Part shown: piece by piece, positions 754-12,433 of the stretch
How positions within the stretch are numbered: position 1 is the first letter of the stretch
Layout: every line of letters starts with the position of its first letter
IMG/VR virus record: IMGVR_UViG_3300031521_002449
DNA from: a virus
Strand: one strand, 5' to 3'
Length of the DNA: 14,794 nucleotides
Made by a program: the position numbers and the translations under genes
The notes under the pieces: generated by a model
Told to the model about the DNA's origin: nothing
What the model saw: only the letters and a program-made list of their open reading frames with translations
Databases searched by the model: none

Positions 754-915
754 ATGAATAATAAAGATATAAATTTAGAAATTGAAAAATTAAAAGAACA
801 AATAAATATTTTGAGTGAAGAAAATAATAAACTCAAAGAAGATATAAAATATTATATTAGACGTGAAGACGAATTAAAATCTCAATTGGTTACTGAGAGA
901 TGTATGAAATATTAA
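754..915 (+). CDS. small coiled-coil protein, 53 aa (MNNKDINLEIEKLKEQINILSEENNKLKEDIKYYIRREDELKSQL...)
   Basis: ATG at 754, 6 nt after the NT5C stop; heptad-like E/K/L pattern. Below the 60-aa threshold of the ORF track, so hand-translated. Confidence 0.3.
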   Translation: MNNKDINLEIEKLKEQINILSEENNKLKEDIKYYIRREDELKSQLVTERCMKY

Positions 916-1067
916 TCGTTTTTTTGTTCTAACTTTTCTTTTTTTATTTCTTTTTCTATCAGTAATATTTTAATGCCCTGTCCATTACAAACTGGACATC
1001 TATTTTTAGTGCTTCTATCATATCCACTAGCATCACAAGCAATACAAATTTTATAAGTATCTTCCAT
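912..1067 (-). CDS. small zinc-ribbon protein, 51 aa (MEDTYKICIACDASGYDRSTKNRCPVCNGQGIKILLIEKEIKKEKLEQKND)
   Basis: Hand-translated minus-strand ORF. Two CxxC pairs (CIAC ... CPVC) spaced 13 residues apart are typical of a Zn ribbon. It is convergent with 754..915, and the two stop codons overlap. Confidence 0.4.
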   Translation of the reverse strand: MEDTYKICIACDASGYDRSTKNRCPVCNGQGIKILLIEKEIKKEKLEQKND

Positions 1068-1070
1068 TTT

Positions 1071-1242
1071 TTATATGTTAAATTTTATTTGATTTATTAT
1101 TATTAACAATTCTTCTTTACATTCTTCTATATTATCAGATGTAAATATTATTGAATCTATCCCATCTATTTCTATAGATCCTTCTGTTTTTATTAAGTAT
1201 TGTTTCAAAATCATCGTTTTCAAATGTTTTAATATATTTCAT
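1071..1242 (-). pseudogene. frameshifted or truncated member of the MKYIK...KFNI tandem family
   Basis: Minus strand reads ATG AAA TAT ATT AAA ACA TTT GAA (MKYIKTFEND...), then stops after 35 codons. A +1 frame continues ...EGSIEIDGIDSIIFTSDNIEECKEELLIIINQIKFNI* and ends with the family C-terminus. The frame switch must lie near the A5 run in TAATAAAAACAGAAGG. Confidence 0.35.
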
Positions 1243-1243
1243 A

Positions 1244-1714
1244 TTAAATATTATATTTTTTTGAATCTTTTTTAATTTCTAACTCTTCCATCAATGAGCC
1301 TTTAATATAACTATAAACTCTAACCTTAAAATCAGGCGAAGTTTTAGTATTATTATAATTTGTAAATAACGTGTGCCATATATTTTCATTATCAATTTTT
1401 ACTAAAATATCAGAATCATGATATTTTGGATTTTCAAATTTAACATCTTTACATATACCAATAATGCTATGTTTTTTTTGATCGTGCGGATTTTCATTAG
1501 AAAAATCTAAGCTGTAACACCAAGTACATTGAAATGCTATTTGTTTGTTTATTATAATTTCTTTAGCCAGATCATAAAAATCAACGTTATAGTTTCTACA
1601 ATCTTCTTTTAAATTCTTTAAACTAAATGATTTATATGATTTATCTTTAATTTTAGAGAATTCATCTCTAATTGGTTGTTTTTGATGTATAAATAGTTCG
1701 TATAATTTTATCAT
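1244..1714 (-). CDS. tandem-family protein, 156 aa (N-term MIKLYELF, C-term KKYNI)
   Basis: ORF in the minus-strand array. ATGA overlap with the upstream member. Ends with the KYNI family tail. Confidence 0.55.
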   Translation of the reverse strand: MIKLYELFIHQKQPIRDEFSKIKDKSYKSFSLKNLKEDCRNYNVDFYDLAKEIIINKQIAFQCTWCYSLDFSNENPHDQKKHSIIGICKDVKFENPKYHDSDILVKIDNENIWHTLFTNYNNTKTSPDFKVRVYSYIKGSLMEELEIKKDSKKYNI

Positions 1715-2193
1715 ATATTGTATTTTTCAACTTTCTTTTTAAATTTTACTTCTTTATGTAATGGTTTTGTATCAGCATCGTAATCATAAATTGAAACTAT
1801 TGAATCACTATCTACTAAAAAAGATTTATCTGAAAGTGGAGTAAAATCTATATATTTTTCACCACTTAAAATTTGTATATTTGATAATGTAACATTAATA
1901 TAAAAATCATCTTTATAGTAAAGACAATCAACATCTTTCACCTTACCTTTTATTATTGGGTTATTTATAAGTTTATTTATATTTTTAAATATAATAGTTT
2001 TATTTATTAAAATTTCCTTGAAAAAATTTATAACATTTATATTATAAATACTCTCTAAAGTATAATCTTCATCAAATTCTTCACTATCAAGACTGACACC
2101 TAAATATTTAATAACATCATTAATGAAAAATTGATCTTTACCAAGCATATAATTATTTTCTACACCTTCAAATATTTTAAATTTTGTTATCAT
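1711..2193 (-). CDS. tandem-family protein, 160 aa (N-term MITKFKIFE, C-term EKYNI)
   Basis: ORF in the array with ATGA overlaps on both sides and the family tail. Confidence 0.55.
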   Translation of the reverse strand: MITKFKIFEGVENNYMLGKDQFFINDVIKYLGVSLDSEEFDEDYTLESIYNINVINFFKEILINKTIIFKNINKLINNPIIKGKVKDVDCLYYKDDFYINVTLSNIQILSGEKYIDFTPLSDKSFLVDSDSIVSIYDYDADTKPLHKEVKFKKKVEKYNI

Positions 2194-2417
2194 AGTTTTT
2201 TTATCGTATCTTTAATAGTATCATTTTTAACATATAATAAGTATTCACCTTTATTTGTTGTAAGGTTATAAATAGAATGACCTTCATTAATAGCGGTTAT
2301 AATTTCAAGATATTCATCTATTTCTTCTTTAGATAATTTATAACTTTTTGACAATTCTTTCAACGCCATTTCTTTTGTAATTTCTTCAGTTTTCAGAATT
2401 TCTGTTTTTTTCTTCAT
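2190..2417 (-). CDS. hypothetical protein, 75 aa, embedded in the array (no KYNI tail)
   Basis: ORF with ATGA overlap downstream and a 3-nt spacer upstream. K/E-rich, probably helical. Confidence 0.45.
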   Translation of the reverse strand: MKKKTEILKTEEITKEMALKELSKSYKLSKEEIDEYLEIITAINEGHSIYNLTTNKGEYLLYVKNDTIKDTIKKL

Positions 2418-2420
2418 ATA

Positions 2421-3152
2421 TTATATATTATATTTTATAAATTTCTTTCTAAGATTATATCTTTCAAATTTTTCTGGAAATTTTTCTTGTAATTCCTTAA
2501 TCTTTTTTATATCACCATTACTTGATAAATTAGATATAAAATCATCTCCTCTATCATCTTTAATACCCCAATCTGCATCTAATTCTATTAATTTATCAAC
2601 AATAGAAAAATTATCTTTTCTATGTTTCTCATTTGTAGCTTTCATTAAAGCTGTTCTTCCAAATGAATCTTGAATATCTAAGTTCGCGCCATATTTAACA
2701 AACAAGTTAATTATTTTAATTATTTGTGATGGTCTACCATTTGATGATAATATTGCAATCATCAATGGTGTTCTACTAGATTTATTTTGAACATTCGCAT
2801 TTGCGCCTTTCCTCAACAAACTTTCAATTTTTTTGATATTTAAACCATGAATTACATCAAACAATTTATTACTATCTACAGAATCATATATTGAAGATTC
2901 AGACAATTTTTTCTTAAAATTTTTATGAATTAAATATTTAACATATTTGTATATTTCTTTAGAATTTAGCAAATCAATACCATAATCATTATAAATATAA
3001 TGTATTATAAATTCTAGAACATGATCTTCAGTTAATGATTGATGTACATTAACAATATTTTTTATAGCCTTTCTATATAATATTGGAAATAGACTGGCTA
3101 TAAATTTTAGATTATTTGTTCCTTCTTTATATAATTCAAATTTGATTATCAT
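2421..3152 (-). CDS. ankyrin-repeat protein carrying the family termini (MIIKFELYKE ... KFIKYNI)
   Basis: Central ANK signatures: LLRKGANANVQNKSSRTPLMIA, LFVKYGANLDIQDSFGRTALMKA, LIELDADWGIKDDRGDDFIS (G-TPLH/ALM--A, GA-ID motifs). Embedded in the array with ATGA overlap. Confidence 0.7.
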   Translation of the reverse strand: MIIKFELYKEGTNNLKFIASLFPILYRKAIKNIVNVHQSLTEDHVLEFIIHYIYNDYGIDLLNSKEIYKYVKYLIHKNFKKKLSESSIYDSVDSNKLFDVIHGLNIKKIESLLRKGANANVQNKSSRTPLMIAILSSNGRPSQIIKIINLFVKYGANLDIQDSFGRTALMKATNEKHRKDNFSIVDKLIELDADWGIKDDRGDDFISNLSSNGDIKKIKELQEKFPEKFERYNLRKKFIKYNI

Positions 3153-3559
3153 ATGTTATATTTGTCTATTTCTATCTCAGTATTTATATTTTTTAATCTA
3201 TTTATCAATTCTATCATTTTTTCTTCTGATCCTATATACATATTACTAGTTGGGTATTCTTTTAATAAACCTATTTCATTTGCAATTTTTTTATATTTTT
3301 CTACTTTTATTTTTTCTGATGGTAATATACCGTCAGTAACATAAATAGAATATAACATTGTATTACCTGTATAATCAATATAATTTGATGTATAATATTG
3401 TTCTGTATCTGCCTTAAGATATTTAACTTTTTCTACTCCACAACTAATATTATTGTTTTTATCAGCAAAAACTTTATTTAATGAATATCTTAATTTATTA
3501 ACAAATTTTTTATTTTCTTCACTATATTGTAATGCATCATATGTTTTTATATATTTCAT
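3149..3559 (-). CDS. tandem-family protein, 136 aa (MKYIKTYD ... DKYNI)
   Basis: ORF with ATGA overlaps and both conserved termini. Confidence 0.6.
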   Translation of the reverse strand: MKYIKTYDALQYSEENKKFVNKLRYSLNKVFADKNNNISCGVEKVKYLKADTEQYYTSNYIDYTGNTMLYSIYVTDGILPSEKIKVEKYKKIANEIGLLKEYPTSNMYIGSEEKMIELINRLKNINTEIEIDKYNI

Positions 3560-4029
3560 ATGTTAAATTTGCTCTTAGTTTTATACATTTCTGAATCTAG
3601 ATCTAAATAAACTATAACTTCTTCATCTACATTATAATAGTCTTCTTCATTATCTATTTTTATACTTATATATTCAAATTGGAATATACTATCGTTTTTA
3701 CTATCCTCTGTAAAAGGACCTGATTCAAATGAAACATTAGTACATAATCCATAATGTGATCCAAAATCAGGATCATTAAAAGATATAACTTTATTTTCTA
3801 TTAAGTTTCTAACTAAAGTTATATATTCTGTTTCCATATCTGATACAATTTTATTATCATCAGGTATAGAATACCCACCTCTTGTTAATTTTTTATTTTC
3901 TCTTACTTTATTAGCATGATTTTCCATTTCAAAAATAAGTTGATGTAAATTAATATATAAATTTCCATCTTTTTCAATTATATTTTTCCATCTATAACCG
4001 TAGTCTTCAAATGTTTTTATATATTTCAT
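3556..4029 (-). CDS. tandem-family protein, 157 aa (MKYIKTFE ... SKFNI)
   Basis: ORF with ATGA overlaps and both conserved termini. Confidence 0.6.
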   Translation of the reverse strand: MKYIKTFEDYGYRWKNIIEKDGNLYINLHQLIFEMENHANKVRENKKLTRGGYSIPDDNKIVSDMETEYITLVRNLIENKVISFNDPDFGSHYGLCTNVSFESGPFTEDSKNDSIFQFEYISIKIDNEEDYYNVDEEVIVYLDLDSEMYKTKSKFNI

Positions 4030-4340
4030 ACGTTGTACTTTTTAATATTTTCTATTTGATCATCAAATTCTTCTTCATCCTCAATTAAGTTTCCTAAACC
4101 GTCATAAAGTTCATAACTATAATGATTTGCACCTTCACCAGTTTCATTAATATATTCTTCTATTCCATAATGAATACAACTATCTCTATCATCTGGCACT
4201 TTATAATAATTTTGATAATAGTTAGTATTTTCTATTCTTTTCATTGATACTTCAAAGCTACCATCAAAAGTAACCTTCAATATCTTATCAGCAGGATTAT
4301 ATGATCCTTCTAATGATTCATTGAATCTTTTAATTTTCAT
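4026..4340 (-). CDS. tandem-family protein, head of array 1, 104 aa (MKIKRFNES ... KKYNV)
   Basis: First gene downstream of the divergent intergenic region 4341-4425. Variant leader and tail. Confidence 0.55.
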   Translation of the reverse strand: MKIKRFNESLEGSYNPADKILKVTFDGSFEVSMKRIENTNYYQNYYKVPDDRDSCIHYGIEEYINETGEGANHYSYELYDGLGNLIEDEEEFDDQIENIKKYNV

Positions 4341-4425
4341 ACACTATATATAATTTTTCAAAACTAAAATAAATATTCAACTATAATTGATAGATAGAAT
4401 TCTATAAAAAATAATATAAAAAAAG

Positions 4426-4821
4426 ATGAATATAATTTTGGTAACAATTTTATTGACATTGTTAGGGACTAGTTTAGTTGTACTTTTAGTATGGTTAAGT
4501 GTAGTGTCTTGTAGAACAATAAAATTTAAAAAGAAAGTCAAAGTTCAACTTAACGACATCAGGGAAGAAATGTATAATAATGAGCAATCATTAAATACTG
4601 TAGTAAATGAACTATATAAACATATAGAAGAAATTTCAAATAATCAGTATAATAATTTGAATGATTATAAAAAAGAAGTAGGGCTAGTTTTTGAAGAATT
4701 ACATAAAGGGATTTTAAATGATCTATCTTCAAATTTACGTGAAACAAGAAAAGATATCAAAACATTAGAAAAAAACATTGATTCTCGTTTTGATAAGTTT
4801 CACAATTTAATAAAAGAATAA
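4426..4821 (+). CDS. membrane-anchored coiled-coil protein, 131 aa
   Basis: N-terminal hydrophobic helix IILVTILLTLLGTSLVVLLVWLSVV, followed by a charged coiled-coil-like region. Terminator hairpin lies immediately downstream. Confidence 0.5.
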   Translation: MNIILVTILLTLLGTSLVVLLVWLSVVSCRTIKFKKKVKVQLNDIREEMYNNEQSLNTVVNELYKHIEEISNNQYNNLNDYKKEVGLVFEELHKGILNDLSSNLRETRKDIKTLEKNIDSRFDKFHNLIKE

Positions 4822-4961: not shown

Positions 4962-5159
4962 ATGAGTAAATTGAATGGAAAAATAAAATTTTTTTCCGAA
5001 AAAGGATTTGGTTTCATCAAGGAAAATGAAACAAATATGGAATATTTTGTTCACGTAAGTGGATTAATAGATACCGTATATGAAAATGATGAGGTTACTT
5101 TTGAGTTAATTGAAGGTAAAAAAGGTTTGAACGCTATAAATGTACAACTTGTAGATTAA
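4962..5159 (+). CDS. cold-shock domain protein (CspA family)
   Basis: GKIKFFSEKGFGFI (RNP1-like KGFGFI) and FVHVSG (RNP2-like), then VTFELIEGKKGLNAINV. This aligns closely to E. coli CspA (GIVKWFNADKGFGFI ... VFVHFSAI ... VSFTIESGAKGPAAGNV). 65 aa. Confidence 0.85.
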   Translation: MSKLNGKIKFFSEKGFGFIKENETNMEYFVHVSGLIDTVYENDEVTFELIEGKKGLNAINVQLVD

Positions 5160-5576: not shown

Positions 5577-5993
5577 TTATATTGATTCACTATATACAAA
5601 ATTTTTCAAAGGTAAGAACAAATTTTCTGGAAATTCATTATACTTGAAAAATTTCCATTCTTCACATTTATCTGGCTCAGCAATTTTTAGATTTTTAAGT
5701 TCTTTTTTTCCAATATTTTCTACTTCATATATAACTGTAATATAATGAGTTTCTTCATCAAACACAGCATTTGTAACTCCAGCAAGTTTAAGTTTATTAG
5801 TTGTTGTAGTTAAATTAGTTTCTTCTTTCAATTCTCTTATTGCACAGTCTTTCAATTCTTCGCCAAAATCAAGTTTTCCACCTGGTAATCCCCAAGTATG
5901 ATAACCTAAATTGATATTTTTTCTGTAGCCAAGTAAGATTTCACCTTTTTCATTTCTTACTATTACTGCTACTCCTACTCTCGGATTGTTCAT
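5577..5993 (-). CDS. NUDIX hydrolase
   Basis: Nudix box GKLDFGEELKDCAIRELKEETNL fits Gx5Ex7REUxEExGU, with N in place of the last G. The preceding RVGVAVIVRNEKGEILLGYR is the typical beta-strand region. 138 aa. Confidence 0.75.
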   Translation of the reverse strand: MNNPRVGVAVIVRNEKGEILLGYRKNINLGYHTWGLPGGKLDFGEELKDCAIRELKEETNLTTTTNKLKLAGVTNAVFDEETHYITVIYEVENIGKKELKNLKIAEPDKCEEWKFFKYNEFPENLFLPLKNFVYSESI

Positions 5994-7113: not shown

Positions 7114-8082
7114 ATGACACACAACAGAATGTTGGACCGTGCTCCCTCGGTCGTGATTACTAGTAATCGTAATGAATTAAAGGTTTATCAAGGAAACAAT
7201 GTTTACCTAAACAATGGTGATAACTTTGAACTAAGGTTTTTTAACCCATTAAATGAAAAATTAGGAGTTGAAATTAATTTCAACGGAATGAAAAAAGGTA
7301 ACGGCTATTTAGTCTTAAATCCAGGACAAGATATAGTCTTAGACCGTTTTTTAGATGAACAACGAAAAATGTTATTTGAAACTTATACTGTAGATGGTAA
7401 CAACGAAGAAGCAGTTAAAGCAATTGAAAAAAATGGTATAATTACATTTAATTTCTTCAAAGAATATGGTTCTTATATGCCTAAAGATGTAAATATAAAT
7501 TATGCTTTTCCACCTAAGCCTCGTAAATATGATGCTAATAGATATTCTAAAAGTATGAATTATTATAATTCAGGCACATCAGGGAATTCTGGAATATCAG
7601 GTAATTCTGGAACATCTGGCAGTTGTGGAACTGGTGGAAATGGTGGATTTTCAACAAATAATTTTAATTATACTGCACCTGGAGTTTTTTTCTCTGAAAA
7701 GGATTTTTCAACGTCTATATCAAATACTATGTTTTCTGCGGATTTATCAAGAGGTATATCATCAACTATCACAAATACTGTACATATCGATAAAGATTAT
7801 TGGTTTCCGTCATCAAGCAGTAACATTTCAGCAGTATTACCAACAATAGATAATTTAGAAACAGGAAGAATAGAAATGGGAGAAATATCAAAACAACAAT
7901 TAAAAACTATTAATGCTCAATTTTGTTCAACACCTATTCATACTGTAACATATCAACTATTACCTATTTCAGCAATGAATCGTACTATTAGTGAAGTTCG
8001 TCAATATTGTCCAGAATGTGGATATCGTTTAAGAAAAGAAACTTGGCATTTTTGTCCAAAATGTGGTGAAGATTTAAAATAA
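7114..8082 (+). CDS. protein with beta-rich N-domain, Gly/Ser-rich tandem-repeat linker, S/T/N-rich region and C-terminal zinc ribbon (CPECGYRLRKETWHFCPKCG)
   Basis: 322-aa ORF. C-terminal CxxC-x13-CxxC. Internal 18-nt periodic repeat encoding GTSGNS/GISGNS/GTSGSC/GTGGNG. Followed 14 nt later by the vWA gene. Confidence 0.55.
   Translation: MTHNRMLDRAPSVVITSNRNELKVYQGNNVYLNNGDNFELRFFNPLNEKLGVEINFNGMKKGNGYLVLNPGQDIVLDRFLDEQRKMLFETYTVDGNNEEAVKAIEKNGIITFNFFKEYGSYMPKDVNINYAFPPKPRKYDANRYSKSMNYYNSGTSGNSGISGNSGTSGSCGTGGNGGFSTNNFNYTAPGVFFSEKDFSTSISNTMFSADLSRGISSTITNTVHIDKDYWFPSSSSNISAVLPTIDNLETGRIEMGEISKQQLKTINAQFCSTPIHTVTYQLLPISAMNRTISEVRQYCPECGYRLRKETWHFCPKCGEDLK
7572..7646 (+). repeat. 4 copies of an 18-nt tandem repeat (GGNANNTCNGGNAATTCT-like) inside the CDS
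   Basis: ggcacatcagggaattct / ggaatatcaggtaattct / ggaacatctggcagttgt / ggaactggtggaaatggt, read directly from the sequence. Confidence 0.7.
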
Positions 8083-8096
8083 AAATAATAGAAAAT

Positions 8097-8705
8097 ATGA
8101 AAAAGATTGATATAATATGTATATTAGATATGTCTGGTTCTATGAGTTCTATTATAGCCAAGGCAAGAGAAGGATTTAATCAATTCTTAAAAGAACAACA
8201 ACAAAGTGAAAATAATATCAAATTCTCATTATTATTTTTTGATACAGATTTTTATATGCCATATAAAAATATTAATATTAAAAAAGTAAAACCAGTGAAT
8301 GAAGATACTTATTATTCTCGTGGTGGTACGGCATTACTAGACGCTATTGGGTTTTCAATAGAGTCATATTTAGATGATTTAGCATTAATACCGAAAAATA
8401 AAAGGGCAAATAAAACACTATTTGTTATTCTTACTGATGGAGAAGAAAATAGTTCAAAAATTTATCATAGAGACTTAATAAAATTAATGGTAGAACAAAT
8501 GCAGGAAGAATTTAATTTTGGATTTATTTACCTAGGAGCAAATCAGGATTCTTGCTTTCAAGCAGAATCTATGGGAATGAATAGAAGTAATGCTTTTAAC
8601 TATGATGCCACTAACGATGGAATAACAGTCGCATATTCAAAAATATCAGAAGCGGCAACATACTACGCTAGTAATAACGTAAAAGATAATTTATTCCAGC
8701 AATAA
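8097..8705 (+). CDS. von Willebrand factor type A (vWA) domain protein with an intact MIDAS
   Basis: DMSGSM (DxSxS), GGTALLDAI (MIDAS Thr), ILTDGEEN (MIDAS Asp), in the canonical order and spacing. 202 aa. Confidence 0.8.
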   Translation: MKKIDIICILDMSGSMSSIIAKAREGFNQFLKEQQQSENNIKFSLLFFDTDFYMPYKNINIKKVKPVNEDTYYSRGGTALLDAIGFSIESYLDDLALIPKNKRANKTLFVILTDGEENSSKIYHRDLIKLMVEQMQEEFNFGFIYLGANQDSCFQAESMGMNRSNAFNYDATNDGITVAYSKISEAATYYASNNVKDNLFQQ

Positions 8706-8977: not shown

Positions 8978-9130
8978 ATGAAAGAAAAGAAAAAAATTAG
9001 TATTCATTTTACTATAGATAAAGTAATAAACGAATCCTTTGATAGATTAATTAAAAATGAATGTTTAAATAAATCATTATTAATACAGACATTAATTGAG
9101 AAATATATAAAAGAAAAGGAAGTCAATTGA
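8978..9130 (+). CDS. putative ribbon-helix-helix (CopG/Arc-like) DNA-binding protein, 50 aa
   Basis: Hand-translated: MKEKKKISIHFTIDKVINESFDRLIKNECLNKSLLIQTLIEKYIKEKEVN. The pattern of an N-terminal beta-strand (KISIHFTID) followed by two amphipathic helices is characteristic of RHH regulators. Flanked by terminators. Confidence 0.4.
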   Translation: MKEKKKISIHFTIDKVINESFDRLIKNECLNKSLLIQTLIEKYIKEKEVN

Positions 9131-9140
9131 CTTCCTTTTT
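9114..9140. terminator. bidirectional terminator: perfect 18-bp palindrome GGAAGTCAATTGACTTCC with an A-run upstream and a T-run downstream
   Basis: Located between the RHH gene stop (9130, inside the stem) and the end of minus-strand array 2 (9140). Confidence 0.55.
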
Positions 9141-9493
9141 CATAAATTATATTTTTTTGTCATATCAAACAAATATGCATATTTTTTAATTTTATATTCT
9201 GGAACTTTAACATCTATTTGAGATGACCCCATGTGTAATTTTTCATTTTTAACTTTTAACTTTAAACTTTTAAGAAAATTGTAAAATCTATCATAAATCT
9301 CTTCTTCTGTAAAATCAAAAAAATAAAATGTAAAATATTCTTTATATAACCCGTTATTATCGTCAAATAGACATTCACTAAATCCTTCTTCTTTAGTAAT
9401 AGGAATTATATCCTCAAAATATAAGCAAACAGAAGTTAGAATATCTTCTCTTTCTTTTGATATGATATAATTCTCAAATATTTTAATTTTCAT
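9140..9493 (-). CDS. tandem-family protein, last of array 2, 117 aa (MKIKIFENY ... KKYNL)
   Basis: ORF with ATGA overlap to the upstream member. Tail is a KYNL variant. Confidence 0.55.
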   Translation of the reverse strand: MKIKIFENYIISKEREDILTSVCLYFEDIIPITKEEGFSECLFDDNNGLYKEYFTFYFFDFTEEEIYDRFYNFLKSLKLKVKNEKLHMGSSQIDVKVPEYKIKKYAYLFDMTKKYNL

Positions 9494-9807
9494 ATATTAT
9501 ATTTGATTGATAATTTTTTTGCTTCGTACTCTTCAATTTCTTTTGGTGTTAATTTTCTCTCAATTATATTTTTATTATCGTATAAAACATTGAGTTTATC
9601 ATCTGCAATTATTTCAAACTTTAGATTAAAGAAATCATCTTCTGTATTATTACCAACTATTTGAGCAAAATTAAATATTTTATATCCATTAGGCAATTGG
9701 GGGGTAGGCATAAACCAACTTTTTATGTTAGAATCTTCAAGTTTAACATAATCTCCTATTTGGAAATTTTCTATCCAACGATCTTCAAATTGTTTTATAT
9801 ATTTCAT
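9490..9807 (-). CDS. tandem-family protein, 105 aa (MKYIKQFE ... IKYNI)
   Basis: ATGA overlaps and both conserved termini. Confidence 0.6.
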   Translation of the reverse strand: MKYIKQFEDRWIENFQIGDYVKLEDSNIKSWFMPTPQLPNGYKIFNFAQIVGNNTEDDFFNLKFEIIADDKLNVLYDNKNIIERKLTPKEIEEYEAKKLSIKYNI

Positions 9808-10148
9808 ATGTTAAATTTTTTTGATTCTGACATTAATTTTGCGACATTTATACAATCTTGTAAATTATCCGATTCATATAATATTTCTTTTTCTTTATAT
9901 GGTCTATCTGTTACAAAATGTTTGAAGGACTGTTCAAGTGTCAATTTTTTATTTAAACCATCATATATTGCATGTCTTTTAGATCTGAAAAATATTCTCT
10001 CTTCAACATTTTTTCTATTCGGTTCTCTATATATATTTAACACTTCAAACACAACGTATATATCAAAAAAATGTGGCTGGTCTTGCCATATAACATATTT
10101 TTTAAGTTTTGGCAATTCTATTGATTCAAATTTTTTAATATACTTCAT
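9804..10148 (-). CDS. tandem-family protein, 114 aa (MKYIKKFE ... KKFNI)
   Basis: ATGA overlaps and both conserved termini. Confidence 0.6.
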   Translation of the reverse strand: MKYIKKFESIELPKLKKYVIWQDQPHFFDIYVVFEVLNIYREPNRKNVEERIFFRSKRHAIYDGLNKKLTLEQSFKHFVTDRPYKEKEILYESDNLQDCINVAKLMSESKKFNI

Positions 10149-10417
10149 ATGTTATATTTGTTTGCAATATATTCTTCTTCTGGTACTAATTTTAATTTTT
10201 TACCAGATACCCAATATTTATTATTTTTATTTTCAATTTGATATGGTTGATAATCATCTTCAGTATTTATAGCAACTATTTGCATAATAATAGTTGCTAA
10301 TGGATTATTCATTTTAACATGATCACCAATTTTATATCTATATGCTAGTAATAATTCAGAGTTTTCTTCTTTATTAATAGCATCAATATATATTTCATAT
10401 ATTTTTATATGTTTCAT
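10145..10417 (-). CDS. tandem-family protein, 90 aa (MKHIKIYE ... NKYNI)
   Basis: ATGA overlaps and both conserved termini. Confidence 0.6.
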   Translation of the reverse strand: MKHIKIYEIYIDAINKEENSELLLAYRYKIGDHVKMNNPLATIIMQIVAINTEDDYQPYQIENKNNKYWVSGKKLKLVPEEEYIANKYNI

Positions 10418-10725
10418 ATGTTAAATTTTAATGCATTATTTTTTATATTTTGCAAATCTATTTCTTCTGGTGTAGCAAATCTAAAATACATTTTATAACT
10501 ACTTATTTCGTTATTACTATCTGTTATATAACCATTTTTTGGACTATTAGGATTAATATCATATCTAATTTTAATCATAGTTTTAGTAGATCCGACCACT
10601 TCCCCTACATTAGTAGTTACAAAATTTTTTGCAGCGGGAAGAACTGTTGGATAACTTGGTAATGCAATTACAAAGTCTTCTGATTCAAAGTCTTGAAATA
10701 TTTCATATGTTTTTATATATTTCAT
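10414..10725 (-). CDS. tandem-family protein, 103 aa (MKYIKTYE ... LKFNI)
   Basis: ATGA overlaps and both conserved termini. Confidence 0.6.
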   Translation of the reverse strand: MKYIKTYEIFQDFESEDFVIALPSYPTVLPAAKNFVTTNVGEVVGSTKTMIKIRYDINPNSPKNGYITDSNNEISSYKMYFRFATPEEIDLQNIKNNALKFNI

Positions 10726-11024
10726 ATGTTAAATTTATTTGTATCATCAAGTATTGATAACATAGAAATACAATCTTTCAATCTATGTGCTTCATATACC
10801 ACATTTATATTATTATAATTAAGATAAAATGTATTATTCATAGTACCATAATTATGTTTATCATTATATTTGAAATAATATTTTACCTCAGCACGAAGTT
10901 TGCCAGTTTCATATAATATGTTTATAATTTTTATAATATAATATTTATATCTATCAATAAAATCATCAACTTCTCCGTTGGTTACAATAAGAAATTTTGA
11001 TTCATATGTTTTTATATATTTCAT
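10722..11024 (-). CDS. tandem-family protein, 100 aa (MKYIKTYE ... NKFNI)
   Basis: ATGA overlaps and both conserved termini. Confidence 0.6.
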   Translation of the reverse strand: MKYIKTYESKFLIVTNGEVDDFIDRYKYYIIKIINILYETGKLRAEVKYYFKYNDKHNYGTMNNTFYLNYNNINVVYEAHRLKDCISMLSILDDTNKFNI

Positions 11025-12331
11025 ATATTAAATTTTGCAGCATTTGCTTTATATATGAATTGCTCATAATTTTCAAAATCATCCTCTGATTTTTCTTCTT
11101 TTAATCTATTTTCAAATTCAGGTGACACAAACCATTGTAATATTTCACCTTTATAAAATCTTGCAAGATTAAATAAATCTAATTTTTTGTTATCATAATC
11201 TATACGAACATCATAATCATAATTAAATTCTGCTTTATCAAAATTTTCCTTAAATGCTTCTAAATTATCTACTTCTATTAATTTTGGAAAAATATCATCT
11301 GGTGATATCATATAGTCATTTATAACATTATTAACTTCTTTTTTTAAATCTTCGAAATCTCCCATAAATTTATATTTATCTTCTTCAAATTCATATGATA
11401 AATCACTGGCTTCATAAATATTTTCTAAAAATTCTTTTATTGTTTTAACATTCATATTATGTTTTTTCATATATTCTATAATTGATTCATAATCAAATAC
11501 TAATTCAATATCAAAATCTCCTGTGTGTTCAAAACTCAACTCAAATGGTAACGATTTTATTAATGCTCTTGCAGCTTTATCAATAGCACGTTCATTTTCC
11601 ATTGCTATTTCCATTTTAAAATCATCCAATTCACTTTTTAATCCTAAATAATTAAATAATTTATGAATTTCATTTTCTTCACCTGGATCTATTTCATAAT
11701 TAAATAATTTAGAAAATTCTTTAATTTTATTTAATGTCTCTTCAGATAAATAAGAATAGATATAATCTAATTCATCATCATCAACATAATAATCTTGGCT
11801 ATTTCCATAAGAGCCAAAACTTAAAAGATGATTTATAATACCCTCTTCTAATTCCATTAAATCTTCTAATTTTCTAGACTTCATAAAAATGATTAGTTTA
11901 TCTTTATCATACTCTGGTTCATATCTATAATAACTACTAGATTTTGTTATGTATTCTTTTTCATCTAAACCTATATAATTAACAATATCTTCTGGTTTGA
12001 AATCTGGGGATTCTAATATTTGAATTAAATTTTGTTTATCATCATCTTCATCATCTGAATAACTTTCTTTAACAGGATTATTTCTCAAATATTCCGCTTG
12101 TTTTAATGTTTTAAAGCTTATTGATTTAAGTTTCTGTATTTTAGAATTTTTATCATTATTTAACTTTGTGCGTTTTGCTGGATCTTTTTCTCTACCTAAT
12201 CTTTTTCTATCACTTTTAATACCTTTTTGTAAATAAACAGCATTCTTTAATAAACCTTTTTTAACTTTGAAAGGTTTTGCTGAATTTATTGTTATTGGTT
12301 TAAAATTTTCGTATGTTTTGATATATTTCAT
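11021..12331 (-). CDS. large acidic tandem-family protein, head of array 2, 436 aa (MKYIKTYE ... AKFNI)
   Basis: Long ORF. It carries the family leader even though no gene lies upstream of it. D/E-rich interior (SYSDDEDDDKQ...). Confidence 0.65.
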   Translation of the reverse strand: MKYIKTYENFKPITINSAKPFKVKKGLLKNAVYLQKGIKSDRKRLGREKDPAKRTKLNNDKNSKIQKLKSISFKTLKQAEYLRNNPVKESYSDDEDDDKQNLIQILESPDFKPEDIVNYIGLDEKEYITKSSSYYRYEPEYDKDKLIIFMKSRKLEDLMELEEGIINHLLSFGSYGNSQDYYVDDDELDYIYSYLSEETLNKIKEFSKLFNYEIDPGEENEIHKLFNYLGLKSELDDFKMEIAMENERAIDKAARALIKSLPFELSFEHTGDFDIELVFDYESIIEYMKKHNMNVKTIKEFLENIYEASDLSYEFEEDKYKFMGDFEDLKKEVNNVINDYMISPDDIFPKLIEVDNLEAFKENFDKAEFNYDYDVRIDYDNKKLDLFNLARFYKGEILQWFVSPEFENRLKEEKSEDDFENYEQFIYKANAAKFNI

Positions 12332-12433
12332 AACAATATATATAAAATTATTAAGGCATTTTTTTGTTAGATAAAATATTTTTATATTTGAACAACTATA
12401 TCTTAGAAAAAGATATAATAAAATAAAAATTAA

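Follow-up and report, generated by a model that had tools for sequence, protein, structure and literature searches.

The IMG/VR viral contig IMGVR_UViG_3300031521_002449, analysed here over its entire length of 14,794 nucleotides (the window, with a GC content of 22-24%), carries two arrays of small minus-strand genes whose products share short peptides at both ends: an N-terminal leader, MKYIKT[FY]E in its canonical form, and a C-terminal tail ending in K[FY]N[ILV]. We concentrate on array 1 (1071-4340, minus strand), an operon-like block of small, mostly unrelated accessory genes transcribed in one direction, in which each gene is a cassette made up of an eight-residue leader (or a stable variant of it), an interior unrelated to those of its neighbours and the C-terminal tail. 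The tail, the stop codon and the start of the next gene are merged in a single junction of about 35 nt. A preliminary description of this DNA had reported eight minus-strand open reading frames (ORFs), and all are present where it placed them, with the leaders and tails that it gave; the region comprises seven genes with intact leader and tail, one gene without tags (2190-2417) and the frameshifted remnant of a ninth (1071-1242).

Organization of the arrays

Positions 4341-4425, minus strand: upstream region of array 1, shared with the divergent plus-strand gene at 4426; contains TTATATATA at 4345-4353, 4 nt before the first ATG, and also a TAGTTTTG / TTG pair
Positions 4026-4340, minus strand: member 1, 104 amino acids (aa), leader MKIKRFNE, tail KKYNV; orthologues P0006-P0010
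Positions 3556-4029, minus strand: member 2, 157 aa, leader MKYIKTFE, tail SKFNI
Positions 3149-3559, minus strand: member 3, 136 aa, leader MKYIKTYD, tail DKYNI
Positions 2421-3152, minus strand: member 4, 243 aa, ankyrin repeats, leader MIIKFELYKE, tail IKYNI, TAA stop
Positions 2190-2417, minus strand: untagged gene, 75 aa, with neither leader nor tail; ATGA overlap with the next gene
Positions 1711-2193, minus strand: member 5, 160 aa, leader MITKFKIFE, tail EKYNI
Positions 1244-1714, minus strand: member 6, 156 aa, leader MIKLYELF, tail KKYNI, TAA stop
Positions 1071-1242, minus strand: ninth member, decayed; leader ORF 1135-1242 out of frame with the body, 1071-1223, which ends ..QIKFNI
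Positions 912-1067, minus strand: zinc-ribbon (CxxC) gene, 51 aa, 3 nt past the last tail, without leader
Positions 9140-12331, minus strand: array 2, seven tagged genes with the same junctions and with interiors unrelated to those of array 1

The ankyrin repeats of member 4 (Pfam Ank_2, 8.8e-11) were the only domain found when all array members were scanned against Pfam and PHROGs, and a fold search with the 157-aa member 2 returned only weak Sm/Pelota-like matches, with Z scores of up to 6.4, which are uninformative. The leader of member 6 corresponds to the canonical leader minus the KY codons. The gene at 2190-2417 had been described as lacking the tail, which is correct, but the leader is missing too, and the gene is kept at the same position in all the syntenic arrays, which are found in three related contigs; upstream of it lie the tail of member 4 and an ATATATA motif. 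At the other end of the array, the ORF at 1071-1223, with its TTG start, had been taken as the eighth member, but this start is an artefact of ORF calling: the true leader, which is canonical (MKYIKTFENDDF..), begins at the ATG at 1240-1242, in a frame that differs from that of the body. We regard 1071-1242 as a decayed ninth member because, relative to the intact 120-aa orthologue in the related contig L157, it has an internal deletion of about 190 nt and a frameshift. The zinc-ribbon gene beyond it is kept at the end of the array in relatives.

Leader, tail and junction

The first question is whether such short peptides exceed what an AT-rich genome would produce, a doubt that the preliminary description had itself raised. 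The tail pattern AARTWYAAYRTATGA, with one mismatch allowed, has 15 matches against 0.71 expected, and the leader pattern has nine against 0.01; none of 200 shuffles reached the observed number for either, which rules out chance or AT-richness as the source of the tags. The two tags also occur together, since in related AT-rich loci 139 proteins have both, 37 the leader only, 87 the tail only and 988 neither. In the logo of these 139 proteins (median length 114 aa, range 40-438 aa), the N-terminus reads M-K-[YH]-[IL]-K-x-[FY]-E and the C-terminus [ATS]-[NKD]-K-[FY]-N-[IL], or [ATS]-[NKD]-K-[FY]-N-[ILV] once the V variants are included, and the second-to-last residue is invariably Asn. In a close relative of 501 kb (L161, IMGVR_UViG_3300044712_000732), one or two extra residues follow the tail motif (KYNISL, KYNIL, KYNII), and K[FY]N[IL] is therefore not always the extreme C-terminus.

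Of the eight junctions of array 1, six are 4-nt ATGA overlaps; in the remaining two, a TAA stop and the next start lie 1-3 nt apart. As a consensus, the junction reads AAA TWT AAY NTA TGA overlapping ATG AAA TAT ATA AAA ACA TWT GAA, and a canonical 35-nt example, comprising tail, ATGA overlap and leader, lies on the minus strand at 3536-3570 (AAATTTAACATATGAAATATATAAAAACATATGAT). The junction holds AATATAT twice, two bases apart. After the TGA, the upstream frame (for instance at 3553-3570) reads AAT ATA TAA or TAA, so that a back-up stop, in frame and at most three codons past the TGA, is present in 105 of the 142 ATGA junctions of the clade. An exact 28-nt junction was found at 41 sites, distributed over about ten IMG/VR contigs (181-330 kb) and two of about 37 kb, which have several arrays each; the same search for a hint of a prophage or host gave no match in 185,579 bacterial and archaeal genomes. 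The junction RNA is predicted to be unstructured (minimum free energy from 0 to -3.1 kcal/mol, z-scores from -0.4 to +1.2), and neither structured RNAs at the junctions nor Rfam families or tRNAs were found. As had been proposed, arrays 1 and 2 belong to the same tagged family and share the architecture of their junctions.

Unrelated interiors and turnover of whole cassettes

Between the tags, the resemblance disappears. For a comparison of the interiors, each protein was shortened by 10 residues at the N-terminus and 6 at the C-terminus. No two members of array 1, and no member of array 1 paired with one of array 2, then scored below E = 0.02, and the one weak pair (E = 1.6e-4) lies inside array 2. 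Similarly, the interiors of 82 tagged proteins from the window and related contigs form 35 unlinked BLAST groups, led by a family of 24 proteins about 110 aa long and an ankyrin group of 14. Given this lack of detectable similarity, the arrays are not the product of simple tandem duplication, nor is array 1 a duplicate of array 2, as the preliminary description had suggested; in a simple tandem paralogue family, whole proteins would resemble each other. Large tandem sets of small proteins are known from other giant phages. For example, SPN3US has a 20-member tandem family of head proteins (family B), whose N-terminal propeptides are removed by a gp21-like protease (PMC5694885). However, these phiKZ-like head or ejection families are true paralogues by PSI-BLAST, with propeptides of more than 100 aa, whereas here the interiors are unrelated and the termini alone are shared.

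Array 1 also occurs, with its gene order kept, in three contigs (L155, L156 and L157), and a comparison of these syntenic regions, which had been suggested as a way of finding gained or lost members, does reveal cassette differences. Member 3 (3149-3559) is found in the window only, its place being taken by a 71-aa gene in L155 and L156 and by nothing in L157; the gene at 1244-1714 is missing from L157; and of the ninth member, L157 has an intact copy, the window a decayed one and L155 and L156 none. In each case, a whole cassette differs and the boundaries lie exactly at the junctions. Thus, of the proposed duplication plus insertion, the duplication has to be given up, while the insertion holds in spirit. 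Vestigial leader stubs also follow tails without a following cassette, both in L155 (after 645 and after 1719: ATGAAGCACTTAATAA, encoding MKHLI*, and ATGATAATAA, encoding MII*) and in the window (MKKEVN* at 9121-9141, minus strand), and these look like scars of deleted cassettes.

It had also been proposed that the leaders decay along array 1 in a gradient that records its age. However, canonical leaders stand at array positions 2, 3 and 9, interspersed with variants at positions 1, 4, 6 and 7, and the variants are stable and specific to particular interior families. For instance, MKIKRFNESL is invariant in six orthologues with an overall identity of only 42-72%, and the MITKFKIFE and MI[IT]KF.. 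leaders are retained in the orthologues of L155-L157, where those of member 4 begin MITKF... Since the variant leaders are retained between orthologues and show no positional order, there is no decay gradient. In ten pairs of orthologues, conservation is higher at the ends than in the interiors, both in amino-acid identity (80% vs 61%, p = 9e-5) and, to a lesser degree, at synonymous sites (84% vs 73%, p = 0.04). Taken together, the syntenic and orthologue comparisons support a turnover of cassettes that would proceed by recombination at the repeated junction.

This arrangement recalls the PeSL (promoter-early stem-loop) elements of the hyperplastic regions of T4-type phages, short repeats at gene boundaries in ORFan-rich regions where whole genes are gained and lost (PMC2839356). 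The insertion, deletion and replacement of genes at repeats, seen between the window and L155, L156 and L157, is the same in both cases. In contrast, PeSL elements consist of a non-coding, sigma70-like early promoter and a stem-loop terminator between genes, whereas here the repeat is coding, the genes overlap by ATGA or are separated by 1-3 nt, and there is no stem-loop; a terminator + TATATATA unit is found in relatives, at array starts only. The in-frame tail-ATGA-leader junction is a clear example of whole-gene shuffling that keeps reading frames and operon translation intact.

Genomic context and clade

Array 2 adjoins a further gene that bears on both the affiliation of the contig and one of the explanations discussed below.

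Positions 12974-14794, plus strand, running off the end of the contig: partial gene for a major vault protein (MVP)-like protein (MVP shoulder PF11978, 2.2e-24; Vault_3 PF17795, 3.5e-10)

Its product is 84-95% identical to proteins of IMG/VR contigs, one of them 501 kb long, and 55-57% identical to proteins of the uncultured huge phages LR756500 (462 kb) and LR756501 (735 kb). A relative with 45% identity also occurs in a contig with a GC content of 0.59. The contig belongs to a clade of AT-rich, T4-related huge phages with relatives of up to about 500 kb, whose members carry dozens of tagged genes. Record labels such as WOOD18 and BUCK21 suggest peatland and lake metagenomes as the origin of the relatives.

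The blocks that flank and separate the arrays (274-747, 4962-5159, 5577-5993 and 7114-8705) encode a 5'(3')-deoxyribonucleotidase (NT5C), a cold-shock protein and a NUDIX hydrolase, as well as a zinc-ribbon protein and then a VWA-domain protein, and in the syntenic contigs GGDEF and Cob_adeno_trans genes additionally stand beside array 1.

The leader as a protein-level signal

Outside the window, a degenerate, back-translated leader pattern detects at least 120 loci in IMG/VR, nearly all of them true ORF starts, in contigs whose GC content ranges from 0.20 to 0.46, and over this range the peptide is retained while its codons shift synonymously with GC. Beyond the AT-rich clade, the leader is longer, MKYIK[TL]FE.F[ILV].E, and no KFNI tail is present. 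For example, the contig L117 has at least 14 tandem genes with the extended leader and unrelated interiors. In LR756500, 21 genes start with MKYI[KL]EYEEF[IL].E, and about 11 of them end in ..ADDFG[FML][FLI](DN), such as ..NADDFGFFDN, several having leucine-rich repeat (LRR) interiors; the pertinent locations are 26-32 kb in L001 and 11.7-17.0, 181, 313-317 and 332 kb in LR756500. Most of 134 non-redundant, longer leader proteins have no Pfam domain, and the rest include six with Ank, five with LRR and one with ArdC-N.

AlphaFold (AF2) models place the tags at the margin of the predicted structures. In the best model of member 2 (3556-4029), which has a pLDDT of 77.9, residues 1-10 and 154-157 fall below 50, and in the five models of member 1 (4026-4340), which reach 69-75, the same is true of residues 1-9. 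In both proteins, the leader has no secondary structure and the tail follows a terminal helix at low confidence. The leader peptide stands apart from the predicted fold, is under selection at the level of the protein and recurs in many environmental phage contigs. Among 50,697 annotated phages, a tblastn search with an L117 leader protein gave no match, and a string search of the literature for the leader returned only false matches on an author name.

A possible capsid-targeting function

The closest parallel to the leader that we found is in phage T4, whose internal proteins IPII and IPIII begin MKTYQEFIAE, while IPI begins MKTFKEF (translated from AF158101). The first 10 residues of this capsid-targeting sequence (CTS) are enough for packaging, with residues 4 and 7 serving in targeting and residues 8 and 10 in processing; T4 Alt also loses a C-terminal propeptide (PMC9026906). 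In T-even phages, the internal proteins are diverse anti-restriction or anti-defence proteins with only the CTS in common (PMC3012670). The extended environmental leader MKYIK-TFEDFINE, which is present in L117, LR756500 and many other contigs, can be aligned as (MKYIK)TFEDFINE to (MK)TYQEFIAE with a match at all four functionally mapped T4 residues (4, 7, 8 and 10). In T4-type internal head proteins, the propeptide has 10-19 aa, resembles MKT[YF].EF and relies on aromatic residues for targeting. What the window leaders (M-K-Y-I-K-T-[FY]-E) have in common with T4 is K-T-[FY]-x-E/.., and the window clade has the first half only. The likeness extends to the loci: in the T-even phages too, a short N-terminal MK..[FY].E(F) peptide stands on otherwise unrelated small proteins, and the set of payloads varies between related phages.

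The head genes of the phages involved are also of T4 type, with a prohead protease of the gp21 family (S77) and T4-like portal, major capsid protein (MCP) and terminase genes. LR756500, whose MVP-like protein is 57% identical to that of the window, has a T4-like portal (5e-33), an S77 protease (PF03420, 6.3e-11), a terminase and a sheath protein. In 24 of 80 viral loci with an S77 protease, an ORF in the gap between the portal and protease genes begins MKY[VI]KLFEQFIKE and has an acidic C-terminus. In T4, the prohead-core genes 67 and 68 stand in this place. The protein encoded there has no Pfam or PHROG match and no informative database name, the one non-generic name being a single JGI label of CarD/CdnL/TRCF family regulator. 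In the window clade, the head module (L378-L404) comprises a portal, an acidic protein beginning MS[IL]DRRIV.., a protease-scaffold protein of about 790 aa and an MCP starting MNLIIDNQKAINKWKPVL, and six contigs combine this module, with its S77 (gp21-like) protease, portal and MCP, with KFNI/KYNL-tagged genes. The leader was looked for in the MCP, portal and protease of the clade and is absent from them; therefore, it is not a general high-expression signal.

Some further features of these head genes may be recorded. The S77 protease (L178-L257, for example L193 5989-7914) is fused to a long coiled-coil, scaffold-like region, so that the whole protein has 600-800 aa, and in one protease clade at least 37 of 68 proteins end in ..KKRFNK. 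The idea that the tail mimics the C-terminus of a scaffold or protease is unsupported, given that the protease of the window clade ends in ..F[DN]KLNS and that of LR756500 in ..RRFNK despite the tail ADDFGFFDN. At 193-198 kb in LR756500, three separate ORFs match a T4 gp17-like large terminase, with a fourth at 396 kb, which suggests that the gene is split or interrupted by introns or inteins.

From these comparisons of sequence, we favour, tentatively, the reading that the tagged proteins are targeted to the capsid and are probably injected accessory proteins, the junction serving for translational coupling and the in-frame shuffling of cassettes. The CTS-like leader would attach newly synthesized proteins to the core or scaffold of the prohead, and varied payloads (ankyrin, LRR and ArdC-like domains, together with mostly unknown folds) would thereby be enclosed in a very large head. 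The S77 prohead protease might then trim the leader after Glu, and the payloads would enter the host together with the DNA. At the level of translation, the first codons (AAA TAT/ATA) would also fit a known translation-enhancing ramp, and the ATGA overlap could couple termination to reinitiation. Because the repeated junction provides in-frame homology, recombination there would gain or lose whole cassettes.

Several observations weigh against this reading. In the window clade, the leader stops at Glu8 and does not have the F-[ILV]-x-E half. Of 139 proteins with leader and tail, 133 have E at P1, and F or Y stands at P2; P3, however, may be T, K, L, I, Q or S, neither L nor I being favoured, and the T4 gp21 cleavage consensus (L/I)-x-E is therefore not matched in this clade, although the extended leaders of other clades contain it (F-[ILV]-x-E). 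Leader proteins also have AAA domains, as well as ATP-grasp, polynucleotide kinase-phosphatase and HNH domains, which are unexpected in a capsid. The window contig itself contains no head genes, the head module being known from the clade only, and tagged genes lie within 9 kb of it in only 4 of 27 clade head-module loci. In addition, there are dozens of tagged genes per genome, in long ATGA-coupled arrays, against 3-10 in the T-even phages, and packaging is predicted here from sequence. Finally, the conserved C-terminal tail is an addition that the T4 model leaves unexplained, and it has a nucleotide-level bias of its own.

Alternative explanations

This bias leads to the main alternative, which we consider doubtful: that leader and tail peptides arise chiefly as by-products of an element that acts on the nucleotide level at gene junctions, and have no sorting role. 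Such an element would combine a T[TA]ATATATA start motif, ATGA reinitiation, an unstructured A/U-rich start and an AAA-TAT/ATA ramp. In fact, the last tail codon is NTA in 83-100% of cases, and in 94% of 209 distinct tail genes (ATA 98 vs ATT 7), a bias that persists without an overlapping downstream gene. The tail followed by TAA spells TTTAATATATAA, a motif of the T[TA]ATATATA type, which in the clade is also found in non-coding DNA, 4-7 nt before the ATG, ahead of the first genes of arrays and of head genes, often after a hairpin and a T-run. It precedes both arrays of the window (at 4345-4353 and 12337-12345, minus strand; 8 occurrences vs 1.7 expected) and 83 ORF starts (of at least 40 aa) in related loci. 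This motif is a candidate phage promoter, which would give rise to leaderless or near-leaderless mRNAs, or a candidate start signal; since the tail with its TAA spells the same motif, the tail overlaps a probable gene-start signal. At the other side of the junction, codons 2-3 of the leader (AAA TAT) match the AADUAU / K|N-Y|I motif, which at these codons gives maximal protein yield (Verma et al., PMC6920384), and thus part of the conservation of the leader may concern expression rather than targeting. The unstructured junction RNA, the back-up stops and the slightly higher synonymous-site identity at the ends, all reported above, point in the same direction.

Nevertheless, in phages with GC contents from 0.27 to 0.46 the codons of the leader vary freely while the peptide persists, and conservation reaches past any ramp, to residues 6-8 (x-[FY]-E) and elsewhere to residues 10-13. 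Leaders also occur in the first genes of arrays, which have no tail upstream, and the tails of the last genes precede leaderless genes. LR756500 retains the leader with a wholly different tail (..ADDFGFFDN) and often with intergenic gaps, and structural genes, which are presumably highly expressed, have no leader. As for the tail, its Asn codon is AAC in 42% of the 209 distinct tail genes, against 11% in interiors, and TTC and TAC codons reach about 22% against a background of about 10%, even though a C at the end of a codon breaks the A/T motif. Selection on the peptide in the tail too is suggested by these C-ending codons, by the swaps between F and Y and among I, L and V, which are conservative as regards the protein, by the occurrence of tails ahead of any kind of gene and by the different tail of LR756500. 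It could be a second terminal signal, or it could be partly the embedded start signal of the next gene.

A second alternative, in our opinion unlikely, is that the tags are protein-level signals for addressing or handling that have nothing to do with the capsid: a protease or chaperone of the phage or the host might recognize them and so time the abundance of proteins, or they might direct assembly onto another phage structure, or export. The protein-level conservation of the leader and the flexibility of both ends would suit such a role, as would the diversity of the payload domains, which include those of cytoplasmic enzymes, and the tagging at two ends, which the T4 model does not explain. 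Moreover, Phi-x-Phi C-termini such as [FY]-N-[IL] are the type of motif that is read by C-terminal peptide-binding domains. However, no partner was found, inspection by eye revealed no hydrophobic stretch resembling a signal peptide in the leaders, and both the resemblance to the T4 CTS and the leader protein placed in the head module point to the capsid. A related and quite improbable version would make leader and tail the two halves of one address system, marking about 100 unrelated proteins per genome for loading into the giant capsid or an MVP shell, with the junction as an in-frame recombination site.

Loading into a vault-like shell built by the MVP-like protein, whose gene lies beside array 2 (12974-14794+), is very unlikely to be the purpose of the tags, an idea that derives from the analogy with encapsulin and vault cargo signals, where a short terminal tag stands on diverse cargo. 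The MVP shoulder and repeat domains (PF11978 and PF17795) are present, the MVP-like gene has a tagged array immediately upstream of it in the window, L159 and L161, and MVP-like genes occur in both tail-bearing lineages, the KFNI clade and LR756500. Yet what was observed is that array 2 adjoins the MVP-like gene, and such co-occurrence is inseparable from shared ancestry. Most arrays, array 1 included, do not adjoin an MVP-like gene; in L163, the array is 8 kb away from it, and L166 (GC 0.59) has an MVP-like gene and no tags within 10 kb. Conversely, many phage contigs in which no MVP-like gene was seen have the leader. Eukaryotic vault cargo, furthermore, uses a domain of about 160 aa and not a short peptide.

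Lastly, it is most improbable that the tagged genes form a single fast-evolving paralogous family with diverged interiors, the termini being structural parts of a shared fold, because, despite the similar size of many members (median 114 aa), the 24-member and 14-member interior families of relatives and a weak amphipathic pattern ahead of the tail, the proteins vary in length between 40 and 438 aa, the interiors include ankyrin, LRR and other unrelated domains, the two AF2 models differ in topology with an unstructured, detached leader in both, and the 82 proteins fall into 35 unlinked BLAST groups.

Significance

Compared with the CTS and internal-protein loci of T4, the shuffling at PeSL elements and the arrays of head paralogues in giant phages, what is new here is the scale, the presence of tags at both ends and the coding nature of the junction. 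If capsid targeting is indeed the function of the leader, the rule MK[YH][IL]Kx[FY]E (or ..F[ILV]xE) would flag the repertoire of packaged and injected proteins in uncultured T4-related phages, including those of about 0.5 Mb, and would point to candidate anti-defence or host-takeover effectors among the ankyrin, LRR and ArdC-like payloads; the leader might also serve as a portable tag with which foreign proteins could be loaded into large capsids. If, on the other hand, leader and tail should together prove to be a two-ended address, the junction would turn a captured ORF into a deliverable cargo cassette, and the arrays would be a protein-level analogue of the integron.

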